NCBI GenBank assembly: GCA_013336225.1
Contig: JAAXUC010000003.1
Coordinates: 9,564 to 73,563 of the forward strand
Direction of reading: 5' to 3'
Origin: Candidatus Moraniibacteriota bacterium
GTDB lineage: Bacteria; Patescibacteriota; Minisyncoccia; Moranbacterales; GWC2-37-73
Length of the DNA: 64,000 nucleotides
The position numbers were made by a program, and so were the translations under genes. Under the pieces are notes generated by a model, which ran no database searches, was not told where the DNA came from, and saw nothing but the letters and a program-made list of their open reading frames with translations. Shown here piece after piece: positions 1 to 59,480 of the stretch. Position 1 is the first letter of the stretch, and each line of letters begins with the position of its first letter.

Positions 1-1813
1 TTTCAAGACAGTGGATGCTGCCGATGGCAATTCAGCTTTGGCCACCACGGCAGAAGTCAATGTTTATGATGATGCAGGTCTTACAAATTTAATTAAAACC
101 GCGAATGATACTTTAAGTGTCACGCATGCAGTCAATGTCGCTGGTCTGGAAGAAAACAAAACCTATTACCTCAAAATTACAGCCACCGACAGCTCTGTCG
201 AATCCAATCCCAACAGATCTGAAACTGTGCAATATTTGAGCACGGTGCCTGAGAAATATATTTTCACCACGGCTGGAGTTTTGTCTAGCATCACCAACAT
301 CAAGGAAGCCATCATTACAGGTGACAAAGCGGTCATTACCTTCAACACCAATCAAAACGCCAAATGTTTGATTGACTCTAAAGACAGTCTTTCTTCGGTG
401 TATAACAATCTGGCTGACAATCTGGAAACTGGCTTTTTCACCAATCACTCCATCACTCTCAACAATCTGATTGAAAAAACTGCCTATGATTACAAAATCA
501 CTTGTGTGGATGACGGCACTGCTAGCATCATGTCAGATGAACATCATTTCACCACTCAAGAAAAAGGATTAACTCAAGGAGAGATGGATGCTATGTCTGA
601 CAACACCGCCCCAGTGATTAGCAGTGTTTCTTTGGACAAGGTGACAGGAGAAAGTGCCACCATCACTTGGAACACGGATGAGGTGGCCAATAGTTTGGTT
701 GCCTATGAAACAGAGGGAGCTTCCTATACCTTAATGTCTGGGGATTACACAGTGAACGCAGATGTTACAAAATACAGCACAGCGCACAGTGTTATTATTA
801 ATGGAATTATTCCAGCTTCCAAATATACTTTCTCTGTAATTTCAACAGATGTTTCTGGCAATATTGCGCAGTCTGCAGAGGCTGGGTTCACCTCCAAAGA
901 GCCATCCTCGCTTTCTTCGATTAAAGTGCTTTCCAAAGCACTTGGACAAGCCACGGTTACTTGGACAACTGGACAAGCAACCTCATCTTTGGTGGAATAT
1001 GGGCTTTCCATGGCGTATGGTCAAACCAAGCAAGACAATTCCAAGGTCAAGGAGCATTCCATTTTGCTTTCAGATCTGACTCCAGGCGAAACATATCATT
1101 TCCGAGTGAAAGGAGAAGATGAACAGAAAAATGTTTTTGCTTCCTCCGACATCACTTTCCAACCAAAAGCTCCGCCAAAAATTTCAGATTTCAAAATTGA
1201 TGAAATTACGGAACATGGTGCAACTGTGAAATTCAATACTAATGTTTCAACTGATGCACTTGTTTCCTTTACCAACACTGATGATGATAAGGATGCAGGC
1301 GTGCAAGGACGACCAGATTATGTTTCCAAACATGAAATCAAGCTTGCGGGACTCACTTCTGGTGCAAGCTTCTCAGTCAAATTGAAAGTTCGCGATGAAG
1401 ATGGCAATGAAACGGAAGAAACATTTGCCAATTTCACCACCACCAAAGACGAGAATCCTCCAGTGATCGATCGCGTCAAAACTGATGCAGCCTTGACTCA
1501 AACTGACAAAGTTCAAGCCATCATCTCTTGGACCACTGATGAAATGTCCACCGGAGAAGTGATTTACAAGGAAGGCAAGACAGGAGACGAAAAGAAATTT
1601 GAAGTGAACAGTTCTCCAAGCTTCTCGCATATTGGAGTCATCACCAGTTTCAAAGCTGGAGTGGTATATTACTTCAAAGTCAAATCAATCGATCAAGCTG
1701 GCAACGTTGCCAATTCAACTGACTACGCAGTGCTCACTCCCAAGAAAAGACAAAACATCATTCAGGTCATCATTGGAAACTTCACCGACATCTTCGGTTG
1801 GGCGAAATTCTAA
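1..1813 (+). CDS. C-terminal 600 aa of a giant Ig/Fn3-like surface protein (5'-truncated by window start); paralog of the 2581-aa protein
   Basis: The ORF at 11..1813 is open to the window edge. It has repeated Ig/Fn3-like modules (…GNVANSTDYAVLTP…). Its last ~120 aa are identical, and its last ~370 nt ~95% identical, to the 3' end of the CDS 3440..11185. Confidence 0.75.
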   Translation, partial: FKTVDAADGNSALATTAEVNVYDDAGLTNLIKTANDTLSVTHAVNVAGLEENKTYYLKITATDSSVESNPNRSETVQYLSTVPEKYIFTTAGVLSSITNIKEAIITGDKAVITFNTNQNAKCLIDSKDSLSSVYNNLADNLETGFFTNHSITLNNLIEKTAYDYKITCVDDGTASIMSDEHHFTTQEKGLTQGEMDAMSDNTAPVISSVSLDKVTGESATITWNTDEVANSLVAYETEGASYTLMSGDYTVNADVTKYSTAHSVIINGIIPASKYTFSVISTDVSGNIAQSAEAGFTSKEPSSLSSIKVLSKALGQATVTWTTGQATSSLVEYGLSMAYGQTKQDNSKVKEHSILLSDLTPGETYHFRVKGEDEQKNVFASSDITFQPKAPPKISDFKIDEITEHGATVKFNTNVSTDALVSFTNTDDDKDAGVQGRPDYVSKHEIKLAGLTSGASFSVKLKVRDEDGNETEETFANFTTTKDENPPVIDRVKTDAALTQTDKVQAIISWTTDEMSTGEVIYKEGKTGDEKKFEVNSSPSFSHIGVITSFKAGVVYYFKVKSIDQAGNVANSTDYAVLTPKKRQNIIQVIIGNFTDIFGWAKF

Positions 1814-3439: not shown

Positions 3440-6400
3440 ATGAACAAAGTAAAAATGAAAAAAATAGCAAAACAAGAATTTGACAGCGTGAAAAAAAAAC
3501 TCTTTTCACTTGGTATTATTTCCATCCTTGTTTTTTTATTGTGCGCAAATATGTCAAGCGCTGCAGTAAACAGTGCAACCTATGACAGTGCCATCAAAAG
3601 CTTTGCTGGCGTGCCGAGCCCGACATATGAAACAATGAGCTGGGTATCATCTGATGGTAGACAAGGTGACTTGCTCGCTGGAGTTAATCTTATTATTAGT
3701 GGACTATCTCCAACCACAATGACTCCCTATGGAGTTGCTGTTGATTCTATTAATAATCTATATGTTGTAGATTATGGTAATAATCGCATCCTAAAGCGTA
3801 GCGAGGATGGCACAACCTGGACAAACATAACTATCAGTGGTTTGGCTCTAAATTCCTTTAACTCTCCGTTTGCGGTTGCAACAGACTCAGTTGATAATTT
3901 ATATGTTTCTGACTCTGGCAACAATAGAATTTTAAAGCGTAGTGCGGATGGCACAACCTGGACGGAGATAACGATTAGTGGACTCACTCCAAGTACATTT
4001 AGCAATCCTAATGGTACTGCCTTAGATTCCATTGGCAATTTATATGTTTCTGATTCTGGCAACAATAGAATTTTAAAGCGCAGTGCGGATGGAACAACTT
4101 GGACAGACATAGTAATTAGTGGACTTACTCCAAGTACCTTCAGTAACCCTCGAGACGTTAAAATTGATTCTTCTGGCGTTTTGTATGTTGCTGACACAAC
4201 AAATAATCGCATTTTAAGACGTAGCGCAGACGGCACAACCTGGACAAATATAACTATCAGTGGACTTACTCCAAGTACATTTAATTTGCCTTATAGGGTT
4301 ACAGTTGATTCATCTGATAATTTGTATGTTTCTGACCTTAACAATAATAGAATCTTGAAGCGTAGCGCGGACGGCGCAACGTGGACCAAGATAACTATTA
4401 CCGAATTAACACCGGGCACATTTAGTCAGCCCGTAGGATTGGCGATTGATCGAAAAGGAGCTTTATATGTTGGTGATTATGGCAATGGGCGAGTGATAAA
4501 ACTTTATTCTGGAACCTCCATTACAATGCGAGTGCGAACTGGTAATGCAACCATGTCAAATGCGGCTGCTTGGTCAAGTTCTTGTGATGTTGCTTCAAGT
4601 GGGGCAAATATAGGAATTGAAAATCCCTGTGTGCGCAGTGGCGATCAATATGTGCAATACCAAGCAATTTTAAGTACAGACGTTGGCATAAATACACCAT
4701 CTCTCTCTAGTGTTACTATTGCAACACAAACGACGTATGCACAATCCTTTCTCAATCTGATTTCTTCACCTTTTAATACTGGAAATGCAAACAATTCAGT
4801 GCAAAAAATCACCTGGAGCGCCAGCAATGATGCGGGCAGTGACCCTGCTCAAGGCACGGTGCAGTTTCAGCTCAGAACTTCGCCTGACAATGTGACCTGG
4901 GGACAATGGTGCGGTCCAACTGCTTGCGATGCAGCTCCTGGGGGAGGAGTCAGTGATTTTTACACAGACAAAGCTGGCGCAACTGCGATCAATGTAGCTC
5001 AAAAAGATTCCAATGGGGATCAATGGATTCAATATGCCACATTTTTAAAGTCAAACGATGGAACCACCACCCCAACACTTTCTAATGTCACTATGCAATA
5101 TGCCTACAATGTACCGCCGGCAATCACGATTGATTCAAATCCTGCCAATCTGAAACAAACTTCAACTGGAACTTTTCAAGTGCCATATACCCTTAGTGAA
5201 ACATATGATGATCTTGGAGTTATTGCACACGGCACGGCAGCAGCTCCTATTAAAGCTTTGCTTTTCTATCAACCAAAAAATGATGTGACTTTAAATGGAG
5301 CAACTCCTTCTGGTCAATCCACAACTGCCGTGACAAAGATTTGGGGAGTGGGTGGAACTGACGGCAACACAGCTGCTGGAAATTACACTTTTACTGTACC
5401 TGCGGGAGTTACTAATATTCGCGACATCGAACTCGCTGGAGGCGGTGGTGGTAGTGGTGCTTGCGTAAGCAGTGTTCTTGGCGGTGATGGTGGAGCAAGT
5501 ACGCTGACTTATGCCAGCTTATCAAGAGGAGTTGCTAGTGGAGGTACGGGTTCAGGTTATGATGGTTCTGTGGATGCTTGCACTACTGGCAACGATAGTA
5601 CAGCTACGAATATTATTGGAGGAGTCAACACTGCTGGAGCTGGCGCTAATGGTAGCACCCTTGGTGGAGGAAAAGGAGGATTAATTTCTGGTGGAAGCCT
5701 CGCTGTTACTCCTGGAAGTCAAGTTAATTTGATTGTTGGGGCTGGAGGAATTGCTGCAACTGGTGGCACGGCTGGCAACATGGGTTGGATTAAAATCACC
5801 TACGATGTCACTTCTGAAGGCGCACAAACAACTGGACTTGTTTCAATCAATAATCCAAGTAATGTGCCAATTCCTAGCACTGGCTCAATGCTGATTGACA
5901 ATGAGCTCATGACTTTTGATTCAGTTGGCGCAACCGGCAATCAGCGAAACATCACCGGCCGAGCTGCAACTTTTGCAACCTCGTATTCAACTACTGCAGT
6001 TTCTCATACTACTAGTAGCCCTATCTTTTTTGCAACTTCTGCCTCAATTCAAACAATCGACACTTTGATTGAAACTGACACACCTGGAGCGCAAGCCACA
6101 ATCAATAACACTTTCATTTGGGATCCACGTGCTGATGCCACCAATAATCTCAGTGGCAATAAGCTTGATGGTGCATTGTTTAAAGTGGTGGCCAATGACG
6201 CAGATGCAAGCAATTTCAACACCATTGGGCAAAGCGCAACAACTGGCGCACAGACTATTGATCTCCAAGCTCCAACCATCACCTCCATCACCACTGATGA
6301 AGCTCACACTGCCACGGGAGCAAACATTTTGTATCTCAACAAAAATTCTGCTCAGATTCCACTGACAGTAAATTTCTCAGAAAACATCAGTTTTGATGCC

Positions 6401-9400
6401 ACTGGCGGCAAAACCATTACCCTGACTCTAAATTCAGGCACTTGCACGATTGCAGAATCTATTTTAAATAGCAATGTGGCCACTTGTCAGTATGCAATCG
6501 GCGCAGATGAAGAAACTCCGGTTGGGGAAAAATTGAAACTCGCAGCTCCATTTGTTGCTGCCAGCACTGCCATCACAGATGGTTTTGCCAATACTCTGAC
6601 CAATTTCACTCCAGCCGCCAATCTGGACGCTGCTACCAATATTGTCATTGATAATATTGCTCCAACTGCCAATGACTTGACTGACATCATCACTAAAGAC
6701 CAATTCACTTCAGCCAATCTTAATGCTCAAGATTCAGACGGTTCAGGCATCGCCAGTTACGCTTGGTCAAAAGTTTCCGGACCTGGCACTATCACTTTTG
6801 GTTCAAGCACTGCCAGTGAAACAACGATCAGTGCCAACACAGATGGGCCATATGTTTTGCAAGTTGTCATCACTGACAACTCAGGCAATGCCATCACTAA
6901 AACTCTAAACTTGATTTGGGATACAACCAATCCGGCTAACATTTCCAAACCAAATGTGCCAAGTCTGACCAATGACAACACTCCCAACATCACTTGGGAT
7001 CAATTCACTGACGCCAATGGCCTTGAAAAATATGAGGTGCAAAGAAAGACTGACACAGTGGGTGACAATTTTGCCACCATCCAAACAATCACTGATACCG
7101 CCACACTGGAAACTGCCAACCCAACCTTCACTGAAAGCACACTGGCTGATGATACATATTTCTATCAAATCATCGCCACTGACAAAGCTGGCAATGTCCA
7201 GACAAGTCCAGCTTCAGATGCCATGACGGTGGACACGATTGCTCCAACCCTTTTGTATTTCTATTCAACCTCTCCTGACTCAACCGTGCTGGACCCAACC
7301 GCTTCAGGCAACATCAATTTAGTGGCTGTCTATGACGAAGCAGTGAACACCGGAAATGTGCAGGTGAGAGTGGGACCAATGAGCGCCACAGTTAATGTCA
7401 CTTTGGATCAAGTTCTGGAAACAACCAAACTGCAAGGTAGCTTTACTATTGGTGCTCCAAGAACAGGCTATGACACCACACCTGATCCGCTTAAGATTGA
7501 ACAAATCTTGGCGCAATCAGTGAGCGATCAAGCTGGTAATGTCCAAGCTCAAACTCTGGCTACAATTGAAGACAATATGAACTTGGTAGCGCGCGGAAAT
7601 TCAATCATCATTGACACCACCCCGCCGATTCTCAACAGCTTCACCATTGAAAACAACAGTGTCACTGCTTTCAAACAACAAAACAATGCTTTCACTTTGG
7701 TGGCCAATTACAACAAAACTATTCAAGCAGGTGGCAACTTGAAAGTGAAACTCAACACTGGCTCAAGCTCACCTGAAATCACTTTGACCAACTCTGCGGC
7801 CGGCAAAAAACTGACAGCTTCCTACAGCGTCCAGGCAGATGAAAATGCCAATGACTTGAAAGTGGAAGCTGTGCTGGAACAAAATGTGCTGGATGGCAAA
7901 GGAGCTCCTGCAAACTACATTGGAAATATTTTGGATGGAACGTATGCAGCTAATGCTGGAGACCCAGTGATTAATCTTGCCGGTTTCCAAGTTGACACTG
8001 CTGCTCCGACATTGGGCGCAACGCCAATTGCGATTCAAAACAGCAATGGTAAAACCAGTGATTCAACTCCAACCATCACTTTAAGCGCCACTGATAACTT
8101 CAATCTTTCCAAAGCCATATTCTCACTCAATAGTGGAACTGCTTGGTGCGCTCCGATTTCATACGGCACTGCAATTAACACTTTTGACATCACCAGCATT
8201 GCTTGCGGGGGAAGTGCGACTAATGGCATTAAAACTGTGACTGTTAAATTTGTTGATGCGGCTGGCAATGAAAGTGCAGCTTCCGCTGCCAGTGTGGAAT
8301 TTGATGATTCCAAACCGCAACTGCAAACCATCACCACCGATACAATCACTGGAATTTATGGCCCAGGCACTGTCATCAAAATCATTGCCACTTACGATGA
8401 AGCAATTACTAGTGGAAGTCTCAGTTTGATTTTGAACAATGGAAAACAATTGAATCTGAGCACCATTGAAAATGGTAATACACTCACAGCAACCTACACA
8501 GTTGGAGATTTGCTTGAAGACACCAATAAATTGAAAGTGGCAACCATTGTTTCGCAAAGCGTTGCTGACACTTCTGAACCTGTTAATACCCAGGATTCAA
8601 CCAGTCTTGCCGGCATCACTGAGAATCTGGACACCAACAAGACAGTTGAGATTGACACCACTGCTCCAGCGGCAACAGTGACCGTTGACCGCTCCAAAGA
8701 TAACAATCAAATTCATCTTGATGCCACTGACAAAAACTCTGCCAACATGCAAGCTGAGATTTTAGTGTTGGAGTCAGAAACAGGAACTTGCAGCTTCACC
8801 AATAACTGGATTTCCTATGCTGACAATGTGGACACAACTTTGATTGAAAATACTGCCAGCTCCAGAAAAGTTTGTGCTCGCTTCAAAGATGAGTTGGGCA
8901 ATGTTTCAAATGAAATTGCAGTTATCATTCCCGAAACTCCAAGTGGAGTTCAAATCGATGACATTTCCAACAGTGAAATTCCATTTTATGGTTCCATGCT
9001 GACTTGGTCCATTCCAACCATCAAAGGAACCAACAATGGATCTGGCGATGCTTTTGCTCAATATGAAATCGCCAAATGTGGTCCAAGTGAAAGTGAAGAA
9101 TGCACTCCTGATTTTGCGCAGTTCACCAGCATCACTGACATAAGCAGGAACTACTTTGTCAGTGACAATCTCACTGCCGAAAAATTCTATTGCTATCAGA
9201 TGCGTTTCAAAGACATGCATGGAGACTATTCCAAACTTTCAAAAAACACTTGTTTCCAAGCAGGTCATGCTCCAGCAGTGACTGATTCGCAAGTTTCAAT
9301 CATTTCAGGAAATCCTGATGACATTCAGATTGGAAATGTGACCGAACAAGGTGCAACTGTCTTTTTTCAAACCAAAGATTCTAAATACAACCGCCCAATA

Positions 9401-11185
9401 GCTACCAAAGCTCAAATAGAAGTATTCACCAGTCCAACCTTGAGTGCTGACACCTTGGTGGCAACAACTCCGATTGAATCAGAATTTGCAGTGGTGCACA
9501 CCATTCATCTTTCTGGACTTACCAGTGGCACTCAATATTATCTCAAAATCACCGCCACTGATTCCTCAACCGCTGACAATGAGGGTCGAACCGGTGTTCT
9601 TGCTTATAGTGCTGATGGAATTCCAACTCTGTCTTTCTCCACTCTTGGCACTCTTAAAACCATCAGCAATATCGATGAATCAATCGTCACTGATTCCAAG
9701 GCTGTCATTACATTTGTCACCGACCAAGATGCTAAATGTTACATTGACTTTAAGGACTCGCTCAGTGCAACCTATAATGATCTCTCAGACAGTTTGGAAA
9801 AAGATTTCTATAAGAATCATTCCATCACACTGACGCAGCTTCTTTCCAAGACAGCCTATGACTACAAGATTTCTTGTATCGATAAAAATGATGTCACAGT
9901 GACAGCTGATGAACATCACTTCACAACAACTGAGAAAGGTTTAACTCAAGGTGATGTGGATGCTCAATCTGACAATACTGCTCCTGTGATCAGCAGTATT
10001 TCTCTGGACAAAGTGACAGGGGAAAGCGCCACCATCACTTGGAACACGGATGAGGCGGCGAATAGTCTTATCTTATATGAAGTTGAAGGCTCAGATTTTA
10101 CGATAGTGGCTGGCGATGCAATTGTGATTTCTGACATTAAGGAATATGCAACAACTCATTCAGTGGCCATCAATAATTTGATTCCTGCAACAAAATACAC
10201 CTTCATTTCAATGTCAACTGACACAGGCGGAAATATTGCGCAGTCTTCGCAATCATCATTCACAACCAAGCAACCATCTGGTCTTTCCTCGGTGAAAGTT
10301 GTTTCCAAAGCTCTTGGACAAGCCACAGTGACCTGGACAACAGGACAAGCGGTTTCATCCTTAGTGGAATATGGGCTAACCACGGGATATGGGGATAAAA
10401 AAGAGAGCAATACAAAAGTAAAAGAACATGAGATTACAATAACTGACCTTAAGGCTGGTGAAGAATATCATTTGCGCGTCAAAGGAACGAGTGACGCTGG
10501 TGAACTTTTTGCATCCTCCGACATTACTTTCCAGCCCAAGGCTCCTCCAAAAATTTCAGATTTCAAGATTGATGAAATTACAGAACACGGCGCAACTGTG
10601 AAATTCAACACCAATGTTCCAACTGATTCACTGATAACCTATACCGATGCTGATAAAGAAGAAAATTCAGGCTTTCAAGGAAAACCAGAAGTTGCAACCA
10701 AACATGAAATGCAACTCAAAAACATGGAAAGTGGAAGAACGTATGGAATTAAGTTGAAAGTTCGCGATGAAGAAGGCAATGAAACTGAAGAAACTTTCCA
10801 GAATTTCACCACTACTAAAGACGAGAAACCTCCAGTGATCGATCGCGTCAAAACTGATGCAGCCTTGACCCAAACTGACAAAGTTCAAGCCATCATCTCT
10901 TGGACCACTGATGAAATGTCCACCGGAGAAGTGATTTACAAAGAAGGAAAAACAGGAGACGAAAAGAAATTTGAAGTGAACAGTTCTCCAAGTTTCTCAC
11001 ACATCGGAGTCATCACCAGTTTCAAAGCTGGCGTCGTGTATTACTTCAAAGTCAAATCAATTGATCAGGCTGGCAACGTTGCCAATTCAACTGACTACGC
11101 TGTGCTTACTCCCAAGAAAAGACAAAACATCATTCAGGTCATCATTGGAAACTTCACCGACATCTTCGGTTGGGCTAAGTTTTAG
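3440..11185 (+). CDS. Giant (2581 aa) surface protein: signal/anchor, 6-bladed NHL-repeat beta-propeller, Gly-rich region, many Ig/Fn3-like domains
   Basis: Single uninterrupted ORF. The N-terminal hydrophobic segment is ISILVFLLCANMSSAA. There are six ~40-aa NHL-type repeats (…LYVSDSGNNRILKRSADGTTWT…), a Gly-rich block (GGGGGSGACVSS…) and repeated Big/Fn3-like modules. The C-terminal 600 aa is paralogous to CDS 1..1813. Confidence 0.85.
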   Translation: MNKVKMKKIAKQEFDSVKKKLFSLGIISILVFLLCANMSSAAVNSATYDSAIKSFAGVPSPTYETMSWVSSDGRQGDLLAGVNLIISGLSPTTMTPYGVAVDSINNLYVVDYGNNRILKRSEDGTTWTNITISGLALNSFNSPFAVATDSVDNLYVSDSGNNRILKRSADGTTWTEITISGLTPSTFSNPNGTALDSIGNLYVSDSGNNRILKRSADGTTWTDIVISGLTPSTFSNPRDVKIDSSGVLYVADTTNNRILRRSADGTTWTNITISGLTPSTFNLPYRVTVDSSDNLYVSDLNNNRILKRSADGATWTKITITELTPGTFSQPVGLAIDRKGALYVGDYGNGRVIKLYSGTSITMRVRTGNATMSNAAAWSSSCDVASSGANIGIENPCVRSGDQYVQYQAILSTDVGINTPSLSSVTIATQTTYAQSFLNLISSPFNTGNANNSVQKITWSASNDAGSDPAQGTVQFQLRTSPDNVTWGQWCGPTACDAAPGGGVSDFYTDKAGATAINVAQKDSNGDQWIQYATFLKSNDGTTTPTLSNVTMQYAYNVPPAITIDSNPANLKQTSTGTFQVPYTLSETYDDLGVIAHGTAAAPIKALLFYQPKNDVTLNGATPSGQSTTAVTKIWGVGGTDGNTAAGNYTFTVPAGVTNIRDIELAGGGGGSGACVSSVLGGDGGASTLTYASLSRGVASGGTGSGYDGSVDACTTGNDSTATNIIGGVNTAGAGANGSTLGGGKGGLISGGSLAVTPGSQVNLIVGAGGIAATGGTAGNMGWIKITYDVTSEGAQTTGLVSINNPSNVPIPSTGSMLIDNELMTFDSVGATGNQRNITGRAATFATSYSTTAVSHTTSSPIFFATSASIQTIDTLIETDTPGAQATINNTFIWDPRADATNNLSGNKLDGALFKVVANDADASNFNTIGQSATTGAQTIDLQAPTITSITTDEAHTATGANILYLNKNSAQIPLTVNFSENISFDATGGKTITLTLNSGTCTIAESILNSNVATCQYAIGADEETPVGEKLKLAAPFVAASTAITDGFANTLTNFTPAANLDAATNIVIDNIAPTANDLTDIITKDQFTSANLNAQDSDGSGIASYAWSKVSGPGTITFGSSTASETTISANTDGPYVLQVVITDNSGNAITKTLNLIWDTTNPANISKPNVPSLTNDNTPNITWDQFTDANGLEKYEVQRKTDTVGDNFATIQTITDTATLETANPTFTESTLADDTYFYQIIATDKAGNVQTSPASDAMTVDTIAPTLLYFYSTSPDSTVLDPTASGNINLVAVYDEAVNTGNVQVRVGPMSATVNVTLDQVLETTKLQGSFTIGAPRTGYDTTPDPLKIEQILAQSVSDQAGNVQAQTLATIEDNMNLVARGNSIIIDTTPPILNSFTIENNSVTAFKQQNNAFTLVANYNKTIQAGGNLKVKLNTGSSSPEITLTNSAAGKKLTASYSVQADENANDLKVEAVLEQNVLDGKGAPANYIGNILDGTYAANAGDPVINLAGFQVDTAAPTLGATPIAIQNSNGKTSDSTPTITLSATDNFNLSKAIFSLNSGTAWCAPISYGTAINTFDITSIACGGSATNGIKTVTVKFVDAAGNESAASAASVEFDDSKPQLQTITTDTITGIYGPGTVIKIIATYDEAITSGSLSLILNNGKQLNLSTIENGNTLTATYTVGDLLEDTNKLKVATIVSQSVADTSEPVNTQDSTSLAGITENLDTNKTVEIDTTAPAATVTVDRSKDNNQIHLDATDKNSANMQAEILVLESETGTCSFTNNWISYADNVDTTLIENTASSRKVCARFKDELGNVSNEIAVIIPETPSGVQIDDISNSEIPFYGSMLTWSIPTIKGTNNGSGDAFAQYEIAKCGPSESEECTPDFAQFTSITDISRNYFVSDNLTAEKFYCYQMRFKDMHGDYSKLSKNTCFQAGHAPAVTDSQVSIISGNPDDIQIGNVTEQGATVFFQTKDSKYNRPIATKAQIEVFTSPTLSADTLVATTPIESEFAVVHTIHLSGLTSGTQYYLKITATDSSTADNEGRTGVLAYSADGIPTLSFSTLGTLKTISNIDESIVTDSKAVITFVTDQDAKCYIDFKDSLSATYNDLSDSLEKDFYKNHSITLTQLLSKTAYDYKISCIDKNDVTVTADEHHFTTTEKGLTQGDVDAQSDNTAPVISSISLDKVTGESATITWNTDEAANSLILYEVEGSDFTIVAGDAIVISDIKEYATTHSVAINNLIPATKYTFISMSTDTGGNIAQSSQSSFTTKQPSGLSSVKVVSKALGQATVTWTTGQAVSSLVEYGLTTGYGDKKESNTKVKEHEITITDLKAGEEYHLRVKGTSDAGELFASSDITFQPKAPPKISDFKIDEITEHGATVKFNTNVPTDSLITYTDADKEENSGFQGKPEVATKHEMQLKNMESGRTYGIKLKVRDEEGNETEETFQNFTTTKDEKPPVIDRVKTDAALTQTDKVQAIISWTTDEMSTGEVIYKEGKTGDEKKFEVNSSPSFSHIGVITSFKAGVVYYFKVKSIDQAGNVANSTDYAVLTPKKRQNIIQVIIGNFTDIFGWAKF
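3725..4505 (+). repeat. Six ~120-bp direct nucleotide repeats inside the CDS, encoding the NHL blades
   Basis: Segments such as caataatagaattttaaagcgtagtgcggatggcacaacctggac recur with ~120-bp period. Confidence 0.7.
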
Positions 11186-11340
11186 AACTTAGCTCGGACA
11201 AATCAAAGGGGATCGGGGAAAAGAATTTTCCCCGTGGAAGGAAAGTTTTGAAAACCGTGGGTTTTCAAGGAGCGAAGCGACTTGGTTGCGGCAAATTCTA
11301 AAATTTCGTCCAAACGAAAGGAAAGGGGTCGGGGAAGTGC
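11186..11340. repeat. Copy (1.3 units) of the ~115-bp repeat that also follows giant gene 1
   Basis: aacttagctcggacaaatcaaaggggatcggggaaaagaattttccccgtgg…gcggcaaattctaaaatttcgtccaaacgaaaggaaaggggtcgggg; ~95% identical to 1927..2080. Confidence 0.8.
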
Positions 11341-11828: not shown

Positions 11829-12004
11829 GGGTATTAATACCCCAGGGCAAGCCCTGGACCCTTTGGGCTCACGAGGCAAGACACGTCGCTCGCGAGCGAA
11901 CATGTCAAGCCTCGAGGTATTAAACCTTTTGGTATCGTCGCTCACCGCCAGCTGGCGGACGGAAATGATTGTCTGCTGACAAATCATTTCGCTCGTTTCG
12001 CTAG
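11829..12004 (+). other. GC-rich multi-hairpin intergenic element (possible structured ncRNA or stability element)
   Basis: Consecutive hairpins: gggtattaataccc, cagggcaagccctgg, gtcgctcgcgagcgaac, ccgccagctggcgg, gaaatgattgtctgctgacaaatcatttc. GC is much higher than in the flanks. Confidence 0.3.
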
Positions 12005-12034
12005 ATAATAAAAAATATCTTTAGCAGTATTTGC

Positions 12035-14473: not shown

Positions 14474-14502
14474 TATTATTATTTTTACTTATTAAGCTGT
14501 AT

Positions 14503-14612
14503 AATTTCGAATTCTGAATTTCGAATTTCGAATCAAGCTTGAATGATTGAATGTTTAAAAAATTAAAACATTAAAAATTCATTCAAAATTCAAAATTGGA
14601 AATTTAAAATTA
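14503..14612. repeat. AT-rich imperfect palindromic element built from heptamer repeats (gaatttc x3 … aattcaaaattcaaaatt); family X copy 1
   Basis: Near-identical copy at 61488..61595 and a degenerate copy at 40020..40078. Confidence 0.7.
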
Positions 14613-14620
14613 ATTTACTC

Positions 14621-19974: not shown

Positions 19975-20005
19975 ATTGTAATTTAGATATGTGCAATATA
20001 TAACT

Positions 20006-20116
20006 TTTGTTTCACCTGTTTTTTCTTGAAGCCGTAGCGAGGAGCGCGAGGTCCGAGCGAGCAGCCATAGATTTCGGCTGCGAAGCGTGCTCTCAAGAGA
20101 AAACAGGTAAAACAAA
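20006..20116. repeat. GC-rich ~110-bp palindromic intergenic element, copy A (terminal inverted repeats gtttcacctgtttt…aaaacaggtaaaac)
   Basis: Core gaagccgtagcgaggagcgcgaggtccgagcgagcagccatagatttcggctgcgaagcg. Copies at 25434..25548 (inverted) and 59278..59388. Confidence 0.8.
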
Positions 20117-20196
20117 AATAGTTTTCTTCTATTCTCGGAATTTTATATCACATATGATCTTATAAATCGATATAATCAAATAAATATTCAAACAAA

Positions 20197-23405: not shown

Positions 23406-25334
23406 ATGTTTAAAAAACAATCTGTCGATTTTATCGACAAAATCGTGGCTGATTTGAAAAAGCCAGTTCAAAGCGCAACTTCTTCAAAAAGTGTTGCACC
23501 TAGCGTTGCAAATGGGAAAGCGGCTCACGCACCAGCAACAAATCGCTCAGCTAATAAACCAGATGGTTCTAGCAAAAAAGCTGGGCATGCTCAAGGTGGT
23601 AAAAGGCATCCAGTGAAAAGAAGCAATTCAAACAAATCACAAGCTCCTCTTGGCAATCCGCCAAGTGAAAATTTGCGCATCACCCCGATGGGTGGAAATG
23701 AAGAAGTTGGTCGCAACATGACCATGTTTGAATATGGCGGAGACATCATCATCTTGGATATGGGAATTCAATTTCCAGAGGAAGATATGCCAGGAATTGA
23801 CTATATCATTCCTAATGCAAGTTATCTGAAAGGAAAAGAAAAGAATATTAGAGGTGTTATTTTGAGTCATGGACATCTTGATCACATTGGGGCTGCTCCG
23901 ATTCTCTTGCGAGAACTTGGTTATCCTCCAATTGTAGGACGCGATCTGACACTAGCTTTAGTGAAAAAGAAAATGGAAGACTATGACACAAATTCTGCTC
24001 AGAATTTGAAAATCATCAGAGTTAATGCAATCACTGACAAAATTCGGCTTGGAAAATTTGAAATTGAATTTTTTGATGTGGAACACTCCGTGATGGACGC
24101 AGTTGGGGTGATCATCAAAACTCCAGATGGCACCGTGATCCATCCTGGTGACTGGACCATGGACAAAAATCCAACCGATCACAGCGAAGTGACCTATGAA
24201 CATCTTGCAAATTTGCCTTCACCAAGAATCTTAATGTTGGAAAGCTTGGGCGCAACTGACACTCGTCCAACTCAAAAATCAGAAGTTGAAATGTACAAAA
24301 ATTTGGATGATTTGGTGGGGAACGCTAAAGGCATGGTGATTATTGGAACATTTTCTTCTCAAATAAAAAGAATTGGAAAAATCATTGAATATGCAGAATC
24401 GATTGGAAAAAAAGTTGCTTTGGACGGCTATTCCATGAAAATGAACATTGAAATTGCCAAGGAATTGGGATATATCAAGGCTCATAAGCAGACTTTGATT
24501 TCCGTCAATGAAATTCAAAAACACCCAAGAAACAAGGTGGTGGTGATTTGCACCGGCGCGCAAGGCGAGGGCAACGCCGTGCTCTCACGCATCGTCAATG
24601 ATGAACATCGTTTCATTCACATCATGCGAGAGGACACTATCGTGTTTTCATCCTCAGTTATTCCTGGAAATGAACGAACAATTCAACGACTTAAGGATGA
24701 TCTATATCGAAAATGTGACAACGTGATCCACAGCGACATTTTGGATGTGCACACCAGTGGTCACAGCAATGCGCATGACATTCAAGACATCATCAGGCAG
24801 ATCCGTCCTGACTTCTTCTTGCCAGTATATGCCAATCACTATTTCCTGAAGGAAGCTGCCAAGCTGGGCGAAAAAGTTGGAGTGCACAAGGAAAATATCT
24901 TCGTGTTGGATAATGGGAATCAACTTGAGGTTCATAGTGGAAAAGCTAAGGTTCTTCCGCAAAAAATCGACACGAGCTATGTCATGGTGGATGGATTAGG
25001 TATCGGTGATATTGGTGAAATTGTCCTTCGCGACCGACAACTGCTTGCCAAGGACGGAATGTTCATGATTGTGGTAATCATTGATTCCAAGACTAAAAAA
25101 ATCATCGGAACTCCACAAATCACTTCTCGAGGATTCATTTTCGTGAAAGAAAATTTTGACCTGGTGAATGCCACTAAGCGCGTGGTTGAAAAAGTGGTCA
25201 AGGAAAAAACTTCTCCAGATGTCTCAGTCAATTGGGATTATGTGAAAAACAACATTCGCGAATCAGTTGGCTCATTCTTGTTTACCAAAACAGAGCGGCG
25301 TCCAATGGTTTTGCCAGTGGTGATTGAGGTCTAA
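23406..25334 (+). CDS. rnj: Ribonuclease J (beta-CASP metallo-beta-lactamase) with a Lys/Ser/Ala-rich N-terminal extension
   Basis: ITPMGGNEEVGRNMTMFEYGGDIIILDMG…LSHGHLDHIGAAP (HxHxDH). A ~90-aa low-complexity N-terminus precedes the catalytic core. Confidence 0.85.
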   Translation: MFKKQSVDFIDKIVADLKKPVQSATSSKSVAPSVANGKAAHAPATNRSANKPDGSSKKAGHAQGGKRHPVKRSNSNKSQAPLGNPPSENLRITPMGGNEEVGRNMTMFEYGGDIIILDMGIQFPEEDMPGIDYIIPNASYLKGKEKNIRGVILSHGHLDHIGAAPILLRELGYPPIVGRDLTLALVKKKMEDYDTNSAQNLKIIRVNAITDKIRLGKFEIEFFDVEHSVMDAVGVIIKTPDGTVIHPGDWTMDKNPTDHSEVTYEHLANLPSPRILMLESLGATDTRPTQKSEVEMYKNLDDLVGNAKGMVIIGTFSSQIKRIGKIIEYAESIGKKVALDGYSMKMNIEIAKELGYIKAHKQTLISVNEIQKHPRNKVVVICTGAQGEGNAVLSRIVNDEHRFIHIMREDTIVFSSSVIPGNERTIQRLKDDLYRKCDNVIHSDILDVHTSGHSNAHDIQDIIRQIRPDFFLPVYANHYFLKEAAKLGEKVGVHKENIFVLDNGNQLEVHSGKAKVLPQKIDTSYVMVDGLGIGDIGEIVLRDRQLLAKDGMFMIVVIIDSKTKKIIGTPQITSRGFIFVKENFDLVNATKRVVEKVVKEKTSPDVSVNWDYVKNNIRESVGSFLFTKTERRPMVLPVVIEV

Positions 25335-25354
25335 AAATAGTAACATATCGTTTG

Positions 25355-25388
25355 AAAAAGATGCACTTTCGGGTGCATTTTTTTTGTT
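25355..25388 (+). terminator. Rho-independent terminator
   Basis: aaaaagatgcactttcgggtgcatttttttt. Confidence 0.7.
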
Positions 25389-25433
25389 TGTGATCATGTG
25401 TAATATAAGATCCTTGAAACAAAAGTAAACCAT

Positions 25434-25548
25434 TTTTGTTTCACCTGCTTTCTCTTGAGAGCACGCTTCGCAGCCGAAATCTATGGCTGCTCACTCGGAC
25501 CTCGCTCTCGCTCGCTATGGCTTCAAGAAAAAGCAGGTTCAACAAAAG
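25434..25548. repeat. GC-rich palindromic element, copy B (inverted orientation)
   Basis: Its reverse complement aligns with copy A/C over ~105 bp. Confidence 0.8.
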
Positions 25549-25741
25549 CGGCATATTTGCACGTGAGTGGATATTTGTGGAAACTATCTTTTGCTGATTG
25601 ATGGTGTTAATAAATTTGCCATATACGTATTTTGCATTGTGTGATATAATTTAACATAAATGGAAAGAATTTCAATAATTTTTTTCCAGTGGTTTTTGGA
25701 AAAATATATTGCATTTTTAAGAAAAACAAAAAAAACAAAAA

Positions 25742-27102: not shown

Positions 27103-28332
27103 ATGAAATTTATAGATTTATTTAAATTATCAACCCGCATGTTTAAAGCGAGAACTTCTCGAACGCTTTTGACTGTATTGGGTATGAGTATTGGTATTGC
27201 TGCTATTTTGTTTTTGGTTTCTTTGGGATATGGACTGCAAAAAACTTTGCTCGAAAGAATCACCACCTCTGATTCTCTTTTAACGCTGGATATTTCCGAG
27301 GCGAAGTCTGGCATTGTTTCTCTCAATACTGATATGATCAAAAAAATCCAGGAAATGTCTGGAGTGGAAGAGGTGAGTCCAGCTTTTCAAATCACCACAC
27401 AGGGGCATTTGGATGATTTGTCTGCAGATTTGGTCACCATTGGTTCTAAGCCTTCTTTTTTGAAATTAGGAGGATATAAACCAAGTAGTGGCGTGCTGCT
27501 CAGCGATGACAATCAAAATGGAATCGTGATCAGTAGCGCAGTGGGACAAGTTTTTGGGAAAACTGTGGAGGAAATGCTTGGAAAGGAAATGACTTTTTCA
27601 TTTTTCGTGCCAAGAAACGCTCCTGCTGTTGATGATGCTGGCAATACTTCGGATGCTCAACCCCAAAGTGATTTTGAGAAAATAAATTCCACGGTCACAT
27701 ATAAAATTGTGGGAGTTATTGATGGCGAGGATAATGTGGTCTATGTGAACATGTCATCGCTGGATGATTTGAAAATTGATAAATATGGACAAGTTAAGGT
27801 AAAAACTAGCTCCAATGGGGAAATGGGTATAATCAGGGATGCAATTTTGGAATATGGCTTGCTGGTTTCATCTCTATCAGACACTGTTGATCAAGCAAAT
27901 CAAATCTTTAGAGTTGTGCAGATCATTTTGATGTTGTTTGGAGTTGTTGCTTTGGTGGTTTCCGCTATTGGTATGTTCAACACCATGACCATCACCTTGC
28001 TTGAAAGAACGGAAGAAATTGGAATCATGAAATCAATTGGAGCTTCTGATTTTGGAATTTCGGTGATGTTTTTCATGGAATCTGCCATCATGGGATTCTT
28101 GGGCGGATGCGCCGGAGTTTCCATTGGTTGGTTGGGAGGATTAGGATTCAACACCATTATTAACATGGTTGCGGTGAGATTTGGCGGTCAGACAGTGAGT
28201 CTTTTCTATAGCCCTGCTTGGTTCGTGCTTTCAATTCTGGCTTTTTCTGGAGTGGTGGGATTTTTGACTGGACTTGTGCCAGCACGTCGCGCCAGCAAGA
28301 TTGATCCCTTGGACGCTCTACGATACAAATGA
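27103..28332 (+). CDS. ABC transporter permease, FtsX/MacB-type
   Basis: An N-terminal TM, a large extracytoplasmic domain, and a C-terminal FtsX-like 3-TM bundle. The last residues are …PARRASKIDPLDALRYK. Confidence 0.8.
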   Translation: MKFIDLFKLSTRMFKARTSRTLLTVLGMSIGIAAILFLVSLGYGLQKTLLERITTSDSLLTLDISEAKSGIVSLNTDMIKKIQEMSGVEEVSPAFQITTQGHLDDLSADLVTIGSKPSFLKLGGYKPSSGVLLSDDNQNGIVISSAVGQVFGKTVEEMLGKEMTFSFFVPRNAPAVDDAGNTSDAQPQSDFEKINSTVTYKIVGVIDGEDNVVYVNMSSLDDLKIDKYGQVKVKTSSNGEMGIIRDAILEYGLLVSSLSDTVDQANQIFRVVQIILMLFGVVALVVSAIGMFNTMTITLLERTEEIGIMKSIGASDFGISVMFFMESAIMGFLGGCAGVSIGWLGGLGFNTIINMVAVRFGGQTVSLFYSPAWFVLSILAFSGVVGFLTGLVPARRASKIDPLDALRYK

Positions 28333-28333
28333 A

Positions 28334-28424
28334 AATGTATTTTGTATGATGTATTTCGTATTTCGTATGAATTCAAAATGCATTTATACAAAATACTAAA
28401 TACTGGATACGATATACAAAAGAG
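28334..28424. repeat. AT-rich palindromic element of the gtatttc/atacaaa heptamer family (family Y)
   Basis: gtatttcgtatttcgtatg … catttatacaaaatactaaatactggatacgatatac. Relatives at 38338..38395 and 61838..61884, and inside miaB at 58788..58892. Confidence 0.65.
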
Positions 28425-36408: not shown

Positions 36409-37458
36409 ATGGATATTAAAAAACTCGAAAATTTTTTGCAAGAAAATAACTTGCCCAAGTTTCGTCTGGGGCAAATTCAAAAAGCCATCTTTACTGATGG
36501 AGCTTTCTCATTTTCTGAAATTACCACTTTATCAAAAGAACTCCGAGAAAAAATGGAAAGTCAGTTGCGGTTGCTTTCCTTTGAAACTGAAAAAGTTTTA
36601 GTGGCTAAAGATGGGCAATCCATCAAGGCACTTTTGAAATTGCATGATGGAGATTTGATTGAAACCGTTTTGATCGCTCCCAAGCCTGGCATTTGGTCTG
36701 CTTGCATCTCTTGCCAAGTTGGTTGCGCAATGGGCTGTCGGTTTTGTGCAACTGGCAAAATGGGATTTAAGCGTGACCTGACTGCTGAAGAAATCACTGA
36801 TCAAGTTTTGTTTTGGAGGCAATATCTGAAACTAAAAGCTAAAAGCGAAAAGCTAAAAGCTGAGGAAGTTTCCACCATTGTATATATGGGAATGGGGGAG
36901 CCTTTTAATAATTGGGATAATGTTTCTGAGAGTATTAAAAATCTGACAGATGAAAAATTGTTTGGTTTCGGCTCGCGCTCAATTTCTGTTTCAACTTCTG
37001 GCATTGCAAGTGGGATTGAAAGAATGGCCAATGAGTTTCCTCAGATCAATCTGGCAATTTCATTGCATTTTGCCAGTGACAAAAAACGCGATCTCTATAT
37101 GCCAGTCAATAAGAAAGACAATTTGGAATCTTTAAAAAATGCACTGAAGGGATATTTCACCATCACCAATCGCAAAGTATTTTTGGAATATATCATGCTG
37201 GATGGAATTAATGACACCGCGCTAGATGCTAAAATGCTGGCAGATTTCATTTATTCCATTGGCAGCACTCATCTTTTACATATGAATCTGATTCGCTACA
37301 ACATGACCAGCGATCCGCCAGCTGGCGGACTGCAGCCTTCTTCCAAAACCAGAACGCAAATTTTCAAGCAGGAATTAGAGAAGCATCAGGTGCATGCCAC
37401 CATTCGAAAAAGTCTCGGCGAAGAAATTAAGGCAGCCTGTGGACAGTTAGCCTCTTAG
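36409..37458 (+). CDS. rlmN: 23S rRNA (A2503-C2) / tRNA methyltransferase RlmN (radical SAM)
   Basis: GCAMGCRFCATG radical-SAM motif and the conserved distal Cys. It contains an in-frame 9-bp tandem repeat insert (36829..36864; KLKAKSEKLKAEE). Confidence 0.85.
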   Translation: MDIKKLENFLQENNLPKFRLGQIQKAIFTDGAFSFSEITTLSKELREKMESQLRLLSFETEKVLVAKDGQSIKALLKLHDGDLIETVLIAPKPGIWSACISCQVGCAMGCRFCATGKMGFKRDLTAEEITDQVLFWRQYLKLKAKSEKLKAEEVSTIVYMGMGEPFNNWDNVSESIKNLTDEKLFGFGSRSISVSTSGIASGIERMANEFPQINLAISLHFASDKKRDLYMPVNKKDNLESLKNALKGYFTITNRKVFLEYIMLDGINDTALDAKMLADFIYSIGSTHLLHMNLIRYNMTSDPPAGGLQPSSKTRTQIFKQELEKHQVHATIRKSLGEEIKAACGQLAS

Positions 37459-38307: not shown

Positions 38308-38406
38308 AATGATGAATATTAAATATTTAAGTTTAAGATGTATTTATACGAAATACAAAATACGAGATACAAAATACATTATACTTTCTTTATTTATATC
38401 ACGAAA

Positions 38407-40011
38407 CTATAAACTCTTCACCATATAGCTGTCGCGCAAACGATATCCACTCTTTTTGTAATAACCTCTCACGCCGATTCCTGAAATTACTACAATCTTC
38501 TTTAAACCAAATTCTTCTTTGGCAATTCTTTCAGCTTCAAGCAGAAGTTTTTTGCCAAAACCGATGTGCTGCGGAGAAGAATTGTCTTGCTTGTCTATCT
38601 GGGTCAATTTTCCATAGGTGTGAACTTCTCGAATGAGGGCTGCATTTTTAAGGACGGGCAAAAAATGCTCTTTGCTGTTGTTTGGAATTCGCAGACGCAG
38701 CAGTGCAAACAATTTTTTCTTATCGGGCGAAACGTATTGCAAGAATATTTCTTGGCCATCTGAGGCAGTATAATCAATGCGATCCAGGATCACTTTTTCT
38801 GCAGCAATAAAACCTCCTCCAACTTCGCGACAGCGAATGCAGGGACAGTTGGATTGGGGGATGATGATTTGGCGCAGATTTGAAATGGTTGGTCCAGCGA
38901 CAATGGATTGAGTTGGAACGTCGCGAATGAGGCGGGCGATGCGGACGTAGGGCACGATAGCTTCATTCTTTATCTTCACTACCAGCTTCTCAAAGGTCTT
39001 ATTTGTCAGTGGGACGTATTTTCCTTGTTTCCACGTCTGGTAGAGCACACTGTTTTTTAAAACGACTGTAGGGTATATTTTGAGCATGTCAGGCTGAAAT
39101 TCAGGGCCTTTAAAAAGGGCTTGAAACATCTTGAAATCGCGCGCAGGGGTTGATCCTGGCAATCCTGGCATCATGTGATAGTTGATCTTGAAACCAGCAT
39201 CCTTGAGCAGCTTGGTGGCTCGGATAGTTTCAGCGACCAGATGCCCGCGCTTGTTCAATTCGAGCACATCGTCATAGAGGCTTTGCACGCCAAGTTCAAC
39301 TCGCGTGCAGCCCAAATTCCTGAAATTAATGATTTCTTTCTCATCGATATAATCTGGACGTGTTTCCAGGGTGAGTCCAATAATTCGGTGCTCTGCAGTT
39401 TCATTTTTCTTCTGTTCAAATGCCAATTTTTCCTGCGGAGACTTGATAAACTTTGCAACTTGATGGACTTTATGAACTTTTCCGTATTCGTTTGCTGCCT
39501 GAAAACAACGGGTGATGAATTTTTTTTGATAGGCTTTTGGCAAGAATGAAAAAGTTCCACCCATTACAATGAGTTCGATTTTGTCAGTTTTGTGTCCATT
39601 GATTTCCAATGAACGCAAACGATTTTGCATTTGCAAATATGGATCAAAATGTGAGTCGATCGCGCGCATCACCGCAGGCTCATTGGAAAGATAGCTTTTG
39701 GGCATATCTTTTTCACTGGGACAATAGATGCATTCTCCTGGACATGGATATGATTTGGTGAGCACTGCCACCACGGCCACGCCAGATTGAGTTCGAATGG
39801 CGCGACTAAGTAGGATTGCCTCAAAAGCTTTATTAGAAGCAACTTTCTTTTCTTTGACGAGCATATTATAGCGATCGCGCATGTCAGCATTGGTGGGAAG
39901 TGGAAGTTTATACTGCTTTGAAAGTTTTTTCTTGAGCTTTGAAAACTCTTCCTGGGTTTTAGGAAGCTCCGCAATTGCGCTTATTATATATTTATCGTAA
40001 AGTGAGTTCAT
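38407..40011 (-). CDS. elp3: Elp3-like radical-SAM / GNAT acetyltransferase (bacterial elongator protein 3 homolog; tRNA U34 carboxymethyl-uridine synthase-like)
   Basis: Radical-SAM CxxxxCxxC (SYPCPGECIYCPS) and a C-terminal GNAT (…GFGKKLLLEAERIAKEEFGLKKIVVISGIGVRGYYKKSGY). The ORF is open to 40074, but the first 21 codons are translated from the family-X repeat, so I prefer ATG 40011. Confidence 0.75.
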   Translation of the reverse strand: MNSLYDKYIISAIAELPKTQEEFSKLKKKLSKQYKLPLPTNADMRDRYNMLVKEKKVASNKAFEAILLSRAIRTQSGVAVVAVLTKSYPCPGECIYCPSEKDMPKSYLSNEPAVMRAIDSHFDPYLQMQNRLRSLEINGHKTDKIELIVMGGTFSFLPKAYQKKFITRCFQAANEYGKVHKVHQVAKFIKSPQEKLAFEQKKNETAEHRIIGLTLETRPDYIDEKEIINFRNLGCTRVELGVQSLYDDVLELNKRGHLVAETIRATKLLKDAGFKINYHMMPGLPGSTPARDFKMFQALFKGPEFQPDMLKIYPTVVLKNSVLYQTWKQGKYVPLTNKTFEKLVVKIKNEAIVPYVRIARLIRDVPTQSIVAGPTISNLRQIIIPQSNCPCIRCREVGGGFIAAEKVILDRIDYTASDGQEIFLQYVSPDKKKLFALLRLRIPNNSKEHFLPVLKNAALIREVHTYGKLTQIDKQDNSSPQHIGFGKKLLLEAERIAKEEFGLKKIVVISGIGVRGYYKKSGYRLRDSYMVKSL

Positions 40012-40019
40012 AGTATTTT

Positions 40020-40078: not shown

Positions 40079-40159
40079 ACATTATAAATTTAATCAAAAT
40101 TTTTGCTTCAAGCTTATCCCTTGGGGATAAAATTAAAAATTGGAAATTAGAGTTAATTT

Positions 40160-59239: not shown

Positions 59240-59277
59240 TAAATGATATTATACAGGGAATCTGCGCAATATATAGG

Positions 59278-59388
59278 TTTTTGCTTCACCTACTTTTTCT
59301 TGAAGCCGTAGCGAGCGACAGTGAGGTCCGAGTGAGTAGCTATGAATTTCGGCTGCGAATGTGCTCTCAAGAGAAAGCAGGTGAAGCA
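59278..59388. repeat. GC-rich palindromic element, copy C
   Basis: ttgcttcacctac…gcaggtgaagcaa termini. The core is ~90% identical to copy A. Confidence 0.8.
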
Positions 59389-59480
59389 AGAATGTCCTTC
59401 TTTTATTTCTGGAACTTTGTATTGCGTATAATCTGGTATAAGTAAGGGCGACTCAAATTAGAGTCGCCCAGTATAGCTAT

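Follow-up and report, generated by a model that had tools for sequence, protein, structure and literature searches.

A structured intergenic repeat of Candidatus Moranbacteria, probably a lineage-restricted non-autonomous element

ERIC (IRU) sequences are intergenic imperfect palindromes of ~127 bp that show compensatory changes in their hairpin and have no known transposase and no clear target-site duplication. The Correia (NEMIS) elements of Neisseria are 100-155-bp miniature inverted-repeat transposable elements (MITEs) with 26-bp conserved terminal inverted repeats, a TA duplication and hundreds of copies; in a classical MITE the transposase binds to the terminal inverted repeats. REP units, 20-40 nt long, share a GTAG-type signature that is conserved, and they rely on the gene for a RAYT (Y1 transposase). 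In Streptococcus pneumoniae, RUP has IS630-like terminal inverted repeats and a TA duplication and BOX is modular (boxA-B-C), and integron attC sites such as the VCRs measure 123-129 nt. Bacteria of the candidate phyla radiation (CPR) are uncultured, with genomes that are very small and streamlined and are believed to harbour few mobile elements, and their non-coding RNA is almost unexplored. Here we describe a 64,000-nt stretch of a Candidatus Moraniibacteriota genome (assembly GCA_013336225.1, contig JAAXUC010000003.1), hereafter the window, in which three intergenic sites, c1, c2 and c3, carry the same structured element. On balance the evidence favours reading these sites as copies of a Candidatus Moranbacteria repeat that is lineage-restricted, non-coding and non-autonomous, which would make them members of a new family of ERIC/Correia-like structured non-autonomous repeats not previously catalogued. 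A literature search on CPR structured RNA motifs and Patescibacteria REP returned nothing relevant.

A preliminary description had placed a GC-rich palindrome of ~110 bp, without an open reading frame (ORF), at these three sites. All three were recovered with ends agreeing within ~4 nt. In the following list "unit" denotes the full repeat and "core" the three-helix hairpin, and R1 and R2 are covariance models built from the copies, R2 being the broader (20 sequences); the sub-coordinates within c1 were obtained from core-pattern matches.

19985..20159, + strand: c1 full unit, ~175 nt, with left flank box AGATATGTGCAATATATAAC, hairpin and right tail ending CACATATGATC (three-way unit alignment)
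20002..20120, + strand: c1 three-helix core, cmsearch 115.8 bits (R1) and 95.8 bits (R2), minimum free energy -54.8 kcal/mol, z -7.4
20005-20029 and 20093-20117, + strand: the two arms of the c1 closing stem, P1
20035-20060, + strand: purine-rich P2 region of c1
20061-20081, + strand: P3 hairpin of c1, GCAGCC-AUAGAUUUC-GGCUGC
20082-20092, + strand: junction GAAG-CGUGCUC of c1
25392..25569, - strand: c2 full unit, inverted, its left end (high coordinate) less sharply defined
25431..25550, - strand: c2 three-helix core, cmsearch 121.1 bits (R1) and 105.8 bits (R2)
59257..59433, + strand: c3 full unit (unit alignment)
59276..59394, + strand: c3 three-helix core, cmsearch 114.3 bits (R1) and 93.2 bits (R2)

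The three-way alignment revealed a mean column identity of 89% for the hairpins, and pairwise BLASTN gave 86.6% over 157 nt for c1/c2, 84.8% over 132 nt for c2/c3 and 78.7% over 183 nt for c1/c3. Two degenerate core patterns each matched exactly the c1, c2 and c3 sites in the 64 kb, with 0 chance matches expected from dinucleotide-preserving shuffles, and a covariance-model scan with filters off detected no further copies in the window. Every copy forms a long imperfect hairpin (z-scores -3.7 to -7.4), and the forward strand of the c2 core is more stable than the reverse by 8.2 kcal/mol. The hairpins have a GC content of 0.47-0.50 as compared with 0.37-0.40 in the surrounding 2-kb windows, in agreement with the earlier claim of GC richness.

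The inverted-repeat hairpin is thus real, while the simple ~110-bp palindrome had to be replaced by an asymmetric unit of ~175 nt around a three-helix core. This unit extends past the hairpin by ~20 nt on the left (box TGYGCAATAT) and by ~40 nt on the right; in the three-way alignment conservation begins at TGYGCAAT and stops sharply after ATGATC/ATAATC. The outer left and right segments are imperfect inverted repeats of each other, so that the whole is a nested palindrome of ~175 nt, as seen in the ~20-nt imperfect outer repeats of c1 (AGAT-ATGTGCAATATA and TATATCACATATGATC) and in the c3 termini ATTATAC...GTATAAT. Across lineages these terminal inverted repeats are weakly conserved. With a size of 175-186 nt the repeat has no coding capacity: the only ORFs there are mechanical TTG-start ones, and neither the ORF tables nor inspection of the family sequences revealed an ORF conserved across copies or subfamilies, as the preliminary description had held.

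To the three copies we could add relatives from 182 fetched loci (numbered L001, L002 and so on), 174 of them around rnj homologues and the rest around miaB homologues and the GPI-gene contig. BLASTN together with models R1 and R2 identified ~20 distinct members in roughly 14 Moranbacteria genomes, R2 finding few members beyond those of R1. All members share one architecture, with a long P1, a P2 tip, P3 and conserved junctions, and they fall into two co-existing subfamilies: type A comprises the window copies, L002e, L031e and L023, and type B comprises L017b/c, L016, L013, L002b, L018, L020, L101 and L180. Up to three copies occur within 16.5 kb in L017. In L002, rnj is bracketed by two members, both antisense to it (9625-9745 and 11890-12010), a type-B copy 256 nt upstream and a type-A copy 87 nt downstream; the site upstream of rnj is also occupied in L020 and L104 and not in the window. 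Comparison of the members shows an apparently ancient core, the ~118-nt three-helix element, on which the unit of the window genome seems to have grown to ~175-186 nt by added flanks, these flanks forming the ~20-nt imperfect terminal inverted repeats.

The gene context of the window copies was as previously claimed. c1 lies between the end of an SBP_bac_5 gene (19974) and a GPI-cupin gene (20197), c2 follows rnj (which ends at 25334) and its terminator and precedes the promoter region of an ABC ATPase gene, and c3 lies between the start of miaB and the terminator of a gene for a 61-aa product. These sites differ in age. Just downstream of rnj, both the window and L002, L008, L017, L031 and L107/L108/L026 carry a family member, always in one orientation, and the RNase J proteins of those five lineages are 81-92% identical to the window protein. 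Since occupancy of the same site in the same orientation extends to at least six lineages, the copy downstream of rnj is evidently old and vertically inherited. The sequence of c2 is 85-87% identical to c1 and c3 and only 73-74% identical to L002e at the same site; being closer to the copies within its genome than to same-site copies in other genomes, it indicates probable recent spread or homogenisation within the window genome. The window RNase J, identical to a protein that NCBI lists for a Candidatus Moranbacteria metagenome-assembled genome on a contig of 115,200 bp, bears a low-complexity N-terminal extension of ~40-90 residues (23406-23680), rich in K, S, A and P, which among close homologues (599-710 aa) is variable in length or absent.

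The spacer between the SBP and GPI genes measures 222 nt in the window as compared with 17-40 nt in most relatives, and because it is short in relatives c1 is apparently a lineage-specific insertion. In L013 the same spacer holds a type-B element in the orientation opposite to c1, while L010 and L014, whose RNase J is identical to that of L013 and whose flanks are otherwise near-identical, have a 33-nt spacer without the element; one population is thus polymorphic at the c1 spacer. Other lineages carry unrelated small palindromes in this spacer. Positions 7100-7111 of L010, within the "empty" spacer, read ACGCTTCGCATC, the first 10 nt of which equal the reverse strand of the element core (ACGCTTCGCA, window 25456-25465); the match may stem from a copy since lost, or it may be coincidental.

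A similar comparison was possible at miaB, where the spacer measures 259 nt in the window, 108 nt in L175 and 35-100 nt in more distant relatives. The flanks of L175, whose MiaB is 81% identical, align on either side of a clean 186-nt block, 59248-59433, with the termini TATTATAC...GTATAATC. Given this clean block and the short spacers of the relatives, c3 is by all appearances a lineage-specific insertion as well. Members at non-orthologous sites may also be closely related: the L180 copy upstream of dnaE and the L020 copy upstream of rnj are ~93% identical over ~135 nt, their ends TTACGC...GCGTAA included, while the MiaB proteins of the two genomes share only 76% identity and no copy precedes dnaE in the L020 genome. 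The short-read contigs of L001, L023 and L111 end inside copies.

The fold shared by all members consists of three helices. P1 is a closing stem of 23-28 bp whose sequence is wholly different in distant members with the pairing kept. The short P2 hairpin ends in a GC-GACA-GC tip that hardly varies, and below this tip either Watson-Crick pairs or tandem G.A/A.G pairs occur, depending on the member. P3 is a hairpin of 7-9 bp in which every pair covaries, for example GCAGCC/GGCUGC, GCAAUC/GAUUGC and CUUAGCC/GGCUAAG, with changes on both sides in 7/7 pairs. The helices are joined by the conserved strands GCCAA (P1-P2), YUGAGC (P2-P3) and (A)AG-CGUGC, which closes the core. Covariation statistics were computed from a 20-sequence MAFFT alignment against 500 column shuffles and slid-partner controls. 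Standard pairs filled 83.5% of cells (65.8% in column shuffles, 46-52% with slid partners), both-side changes occurred in 31/35 pairs and in 129 cells (47 in shuffles), and the covariation score was 0.508 against 0.224; the observed values were reached in 0/500 shuffles. This strong covariation, above the controls as expected of a structured RNA, argues that the three-helix fold is kept by compensating mutations.

The two strands are not equivalent. The forward strand folds better in 20/20 members, by a mean of 6.8 kcal/mol, and the alignment contains ~48 G.U cells and ~25 A.C cells. Decay of a double-stranded palindrome would be symmetric and equal numbers of G.U and A.C would be expected, so that the excess points to selection acting, presumably, on a single-stranded form, either RNA or single-stranded DNA. 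The GC skew is positive on the + strand and in most copies the forward strand lies on the minus (lagging-sequence) strand; enrichment of G and T on the leading strand would therefore push the opposite way. The forward strand runs antisense to both of its co-directional neighbours in 16/20 members and is sense in three (c1, L018 and L172).

Searches of known families identified no counterpart. Rfam 15, applied to the whole window at gathering thresholds, returned two tRNAs only and nothing on the element. At E<=10, with c1, L017b and L002b, the hits were sub-threshold long-hairpin noise (Phe_leader at 30 bits against a gathering threshold of 55, and miRNA precursors), and no ribozyme families were among the Rfam results. 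Plasmid and phage collections contained nothing that BLASTN (word size 11) could match, and the two exact core patterns had no hit in genome, metagenome and viral contig collections, these patterns being too specific to the window subfamily. The repeat is non-coding and shorter than ~300 bp, has terminal inverted repeats and occurs as dispersed copies with filled and empty sites, as is the case for MITEs. The preliminary proposal of a MITE- or REP-like mobile unit or a structured small RNA is accordingly supported, and neither of the findings named in advance as refuting it, a known Rfam RNA or no more than three copies without mobility signatures, was obtained: nothing in Rfam corresponds to it, and the ~20 members in relatives, the filled and empty spacers, the contigs that end inside copies and the non-orthologous ~93% pair extend it beyond the window and carry signs of mobility.

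We propose that a trans-acting enzyme would copy the unit into new AT-rich intergenic sites at gene boundaries, where the element would persist because of single-strand folding, most likely at the RNA level, by its forward strand, usually the antisense one with respect to the genes on either side. The long P1 duplex of ~25 bp would be a substrate for RNase III, an enzyme encoded in the clade. The AT-rich ends, with their -10/-35-like hexamers, could serve neighbouring genes, as in ERIC and Correia. The following features of the window bear on the ends of the copies.

25353..25386, + strand: rnj intrinsic terminator, hairpin-like on both strands (terminator scan), directly 3' of c2 in element orientation and outside the repeat
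59248..59253, - strand: TATAAT, a perfect hexamer that reads outward to miaB (ATG at 59221, 27 nt on) from the outer left end of c3; having no -35, it was passed over by the two-hexamer scan
20147..20176, + strand: promoter-like site before the GPI gene, 10/12 matches, with the -35 ATCACA in the right end of c1 and the -10 TATAAT in the flank

The TATAAT at the left end of c3 is a candidate promoter contribution of the element to miaB, and the site before the GPI gene is a candidate hybrid promoter to which c1 would supply the -35. A Pfam scan of the 30 larger of the 55 called window ORFs showed mostly housekeeping domains, several ORFs being without a Pfam family; the domains include peptidases, LeuRS, CofD, Nramp, radical-SAM enzymes, L1, ThyA, GatB, MiaA, MiaB, ThrRS and DnaE.

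Several observations weigh against a mobile, non-autonomous repeat. No transposase or recombinase was found among those 30 larger ORFs by Pfam, and the gene tables of the fetched relative loci showed none either. No clear target-site duplication was found at the three copies: the best flanking direct repeats are 9 bp long, and the candidate pairs TTGTAATTT/TTATAAATC, ACAAATATC/ACAAACAAA and ATTATACAG/TGGTATAAG match at only 6-7/9 positions, which is near chance in AT-rich DNA. Conservation across lineages is internal (junctions and P2 tip) and not terminal, the reverse of a classical MITE, whose terminal inverted repeats are bound by the transposase. Copy density is modest, with 3 copies in the 64-kb window and 0 in ~21 kb of another region of the L020 genome. 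The stable inheritance downstream of rnj in at least six lineages fits a resident functional gene equally well, and a scan for σ70-type two-hexamer sites revealed no convincing promoter upstream of the forward strand. The antisense orientation bias is suggestive only, because it falls to ~8/11 independent sites once the orthologous sites (rnj-3', rnj-5' and SBP-5') are merged.

Among the alternatives, we regard as unlikely, yet as deserving serious attention, that the copies are multi-copy genes for small structured RNAs of a new class, independent units that lie antisense to and converge on the upstream gene, spread by ordinary duplication and often end their transcript at the bidirectional terminator of that gene. 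The conserved junctions and P2 tip, the covarying stems and the alternation of G.A and Watson-Crick pairs in P2 are what such genes would show, and the G.U excess with the 20/20 strand asymmetry points to one functional strand, found antisense to both neighbours in the 16/20 members mentioned above. A terminator hairpin often follows the element (c2, c3, L002, L031, L104 and L107), the synteny downstream of rnj holds in at least six lineages, and a TGCAAT-type box resembling an extended -10 stands just 5' of P1 in c1-c3, L013, L002b and L023. However, the consensus scan detected no promoter, the nearby terminators belong to the neighbours and would adjoin any intergenic object, and the copies of L013, L015, L018 and L172 fill operon spacers (gaps of 5-25 nt) that leave no room for a promoter or terminator of their own. 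Copies have moreover appeared at new sites together with their flanks, including the ~93% identical pair at non-orthologous loci, and the homogeneity within genomes suggests spreading.

Another reading, which we also hold to be unlikely and put forward only tentatively, is that the ~118-nt three-way-junction core, with its GC-GACA-GC hairpin and its YUGAGC and CGUGC junction strands, represents a new functional RNA class confined to Moranbacteria and CPR lineages related to them. Its own strand, usually antisense to the neighbours, would be the one transcribed, and its copies would multiply in the manner of mobile elements; instead of being a passive palindromic repeat, the RNA might for example serve some unrecognised mobility or defence system as a guide, a scaffold or a ribozyme. 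If true, a functional three-way-junction RNA of this kind would be among the first lineage-specific structured RNAs for this radiation.

Far less probable is that the fold matters in DNA, as a single-stranded hairpin recognised by a structure-specific enzyme such as an HUH/Y1 transposase (REP/REPIN-RAYT, IS200/IS605-derived PATEs) or a tyrosine recombinase (attC-like). Conserved structure with variable sequence, one better-folding strand, the orientation bias and the lack of a visible target-site duplication, as for IS200/IS605, would all agree with such a hairpin, and G.T pairs are tolerated in single-stranded DNA too. Yet the positive + strand GC skew makes the better-folding strand mostly the leading-strand template, which is least exposed as single-stranded DNA; GTTRRRY/RYYYAAC boxes and a cassette context are absent and the neighbours are housekeeping genes; a GTAG-type REP signature is not conserved family-wide; and neither the window nor the listed loci showed a Y1/HUH or integrase gene. 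The least probable explanation, that ordinary cis-regulatory hairpins (terminators, attenuators or mRNA-stabilising stems) became alike by local duplication and are immobile and without a function in trans, accords with the intergenic position of all copies near gene ends and with L008, where the element follows the stop codon of rnj and precedes the terminator and so would be part of the rnj 3' untranslated region, but it is contradicted by the missing U-tract, the silence of the terminator scan at elements beside an rnj that has its own terminator, the antisense orientation of most copies, the distances of up to 39 kb between window copies with other members at non-orthologous loci elsewhere, and the conserved three-way junction, which a terminator does not need.

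A number of known identities were tried and rejected. For REP/REPIN-RAYT, the GTAG motif was present only in c1 and c3 (ATAG in c2) and the window scan contained no Y1 transposase. For an intrinsic terminator, the ends of P1, whichever strand is read, are rich in U on the 5' side and in A on the 3' side, and the terminator scan flagged the separate terminators of rnj and of the 61-aa gene and not the elements. The ends GTTTCAC and GTTTTAC misfit the GTTRRRY of an integron attC site, and the neighbours are rnj, the SBP gene, GPI, miaB and thrS. A type I toxin-antitoxin repeat (Sib/Ibs- or Ldr-like) was rejected for want of a conserved small ORF; an ATG ORF of 18-27 codons occurs on the reverse strand of c1 and c2, c3 is without the ATG and the other subfamily is unrelated there. 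The junctions misfit the CUGANGA/GAAA of a hammerhead, and this and other ribozymes had no Rfam match. A template or variable repeat of a diversity-generating retroelement was set aside since the copies are intergenic and do not differ specifically at adenines, and a sigma-54 promoter in the tail since its GG-N10-GC spacing is off by one.

Other repeats and features were observed in the window.

14486-14614, 40011-40119 and 61487-61614: AT-rich palindrome family, just upstream of gene starts (M16 peptidase, methyltransferase/radical-SAM divergent pair, thrS)
28327-28417, 38339-38387, 58850-58898 and 61844-61881: short ATAC/GTAT-type units
1796-2080 and 11168-11337: tandem ~116-nt units, inside the duplicated blocks 1134-2080 / 10506-11337
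45576-45748, - strand: tRNA-Ile(GAT) and tRNA-Ala(TGC) pair
36832-36861 and 58991-59020: 30-nt inverted pair of AAAAGC-type repeats (CTAAAAGCTAAAAGCGAAAAGCTAAAAGCT), 93% complementary, one arm within the miaB coding region

The first of these is a second, unrelated family of AT-rich palindromes of ~110-130 nt, (AATTTCG)n ... GAATGATTGAATGTTTAAAAATTTAAACATT ... AAATTGGAAATT. The ATAC/GTAT-type units (GTATTTATACGAAATACAAAATACGAGATAC) form a third family, intergenic and in both orientations; similar TACGAAT and GTATAAT palindromes fill the SBP-GPI spacer in L026, L049 and L123. The tandem ~116-nt units are GC-rich and stand between the stop codon and the terminator of two genes for large surface proteins (11..1813 and 3440..11185); each contains several small hairpins, for example GGGCGAAATTCTAAAATTTCGTCC, and has no Rfam match, and the C-terminal coding parts of the two genes are 81-93% identical. 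The arrangement of the two tRNA genes is typical of an rRNA operon spacer, and no rRNA was detected in the 64-kb window. In L177, dnaE and thrS are separated by genes for a reverse transcriptase (RVT_1) and for bAvd/23S_rRNA_IVP (4435-8092), which suggests a diversity-generating retroelement; the window does not have this region.

A dispersed structured repeat among housekeeping genes would mean that CPR genomes tolerate or exploit small non-autonomous elements. As a category such a repeat is unsurprising; as a family it is undescribed and structurally well supported, in a poorly explored radiation. The covariance model provides a handle for finding further copies, the element would explain short-read assembly breaks at such sites, and its presence or absence is usable as a strain-tracking marker.

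Compared with known systems, the Moranbacteria element shares with RUP and BOX the character of a non-coding intergenic repeat of ~100-200 nt with stable RNA structures, while there is no sequence similarity and neither architecture fits. Like attC sites it has a conserved structure with variable sequence, one strand that folds better and a folding strand antisense to the adjacent genes; unlike them it is without R''/R' core sites, cassette arrays and an integrase, and its neighbours are core housekeeping genes. With REP/BIME and REPIN-RAYT it has in common that palindromic extragenic repeats evolve together within a genome and are thought to act as single-stranded hairpins, whereas their signature and gene were not found in the window and the element is a single ~118-nt three-helix unit. 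In behaviour it comes closest to ERIC and Correia/NEMIS elements, but it belongs to neither family, being unrelated to them in sequence and different in architecture. It resembles Correia/NEMIS in being small, non-autonomous and gene-adjacent, in its terminal inverted repeats, in the promoter-like hexamers at its ends and in a long RNA duplex that is a plausible RNase III target; its terminal inverted repeats are, in contrast, short and imperfect, no duplication is demonstrable, its density is lower and its conserved part is internal. From ERIC it differs in belonging to another phylum (CPR) with no sequence similarity, in its three-way junction, conserved junction strands and two co-existing subfamilies, and in its mostly antisense copies, ERICs being described in transcribed regions in either orientation. 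It is like ERIC in its size, in being non-coding and strictly intergenic, in the lack of any transposase or clear duplication found, in a copy number that varies by lineage, in its presence or absence at orthologous spacers and in a long imperfect hairpin with compensatory changes.

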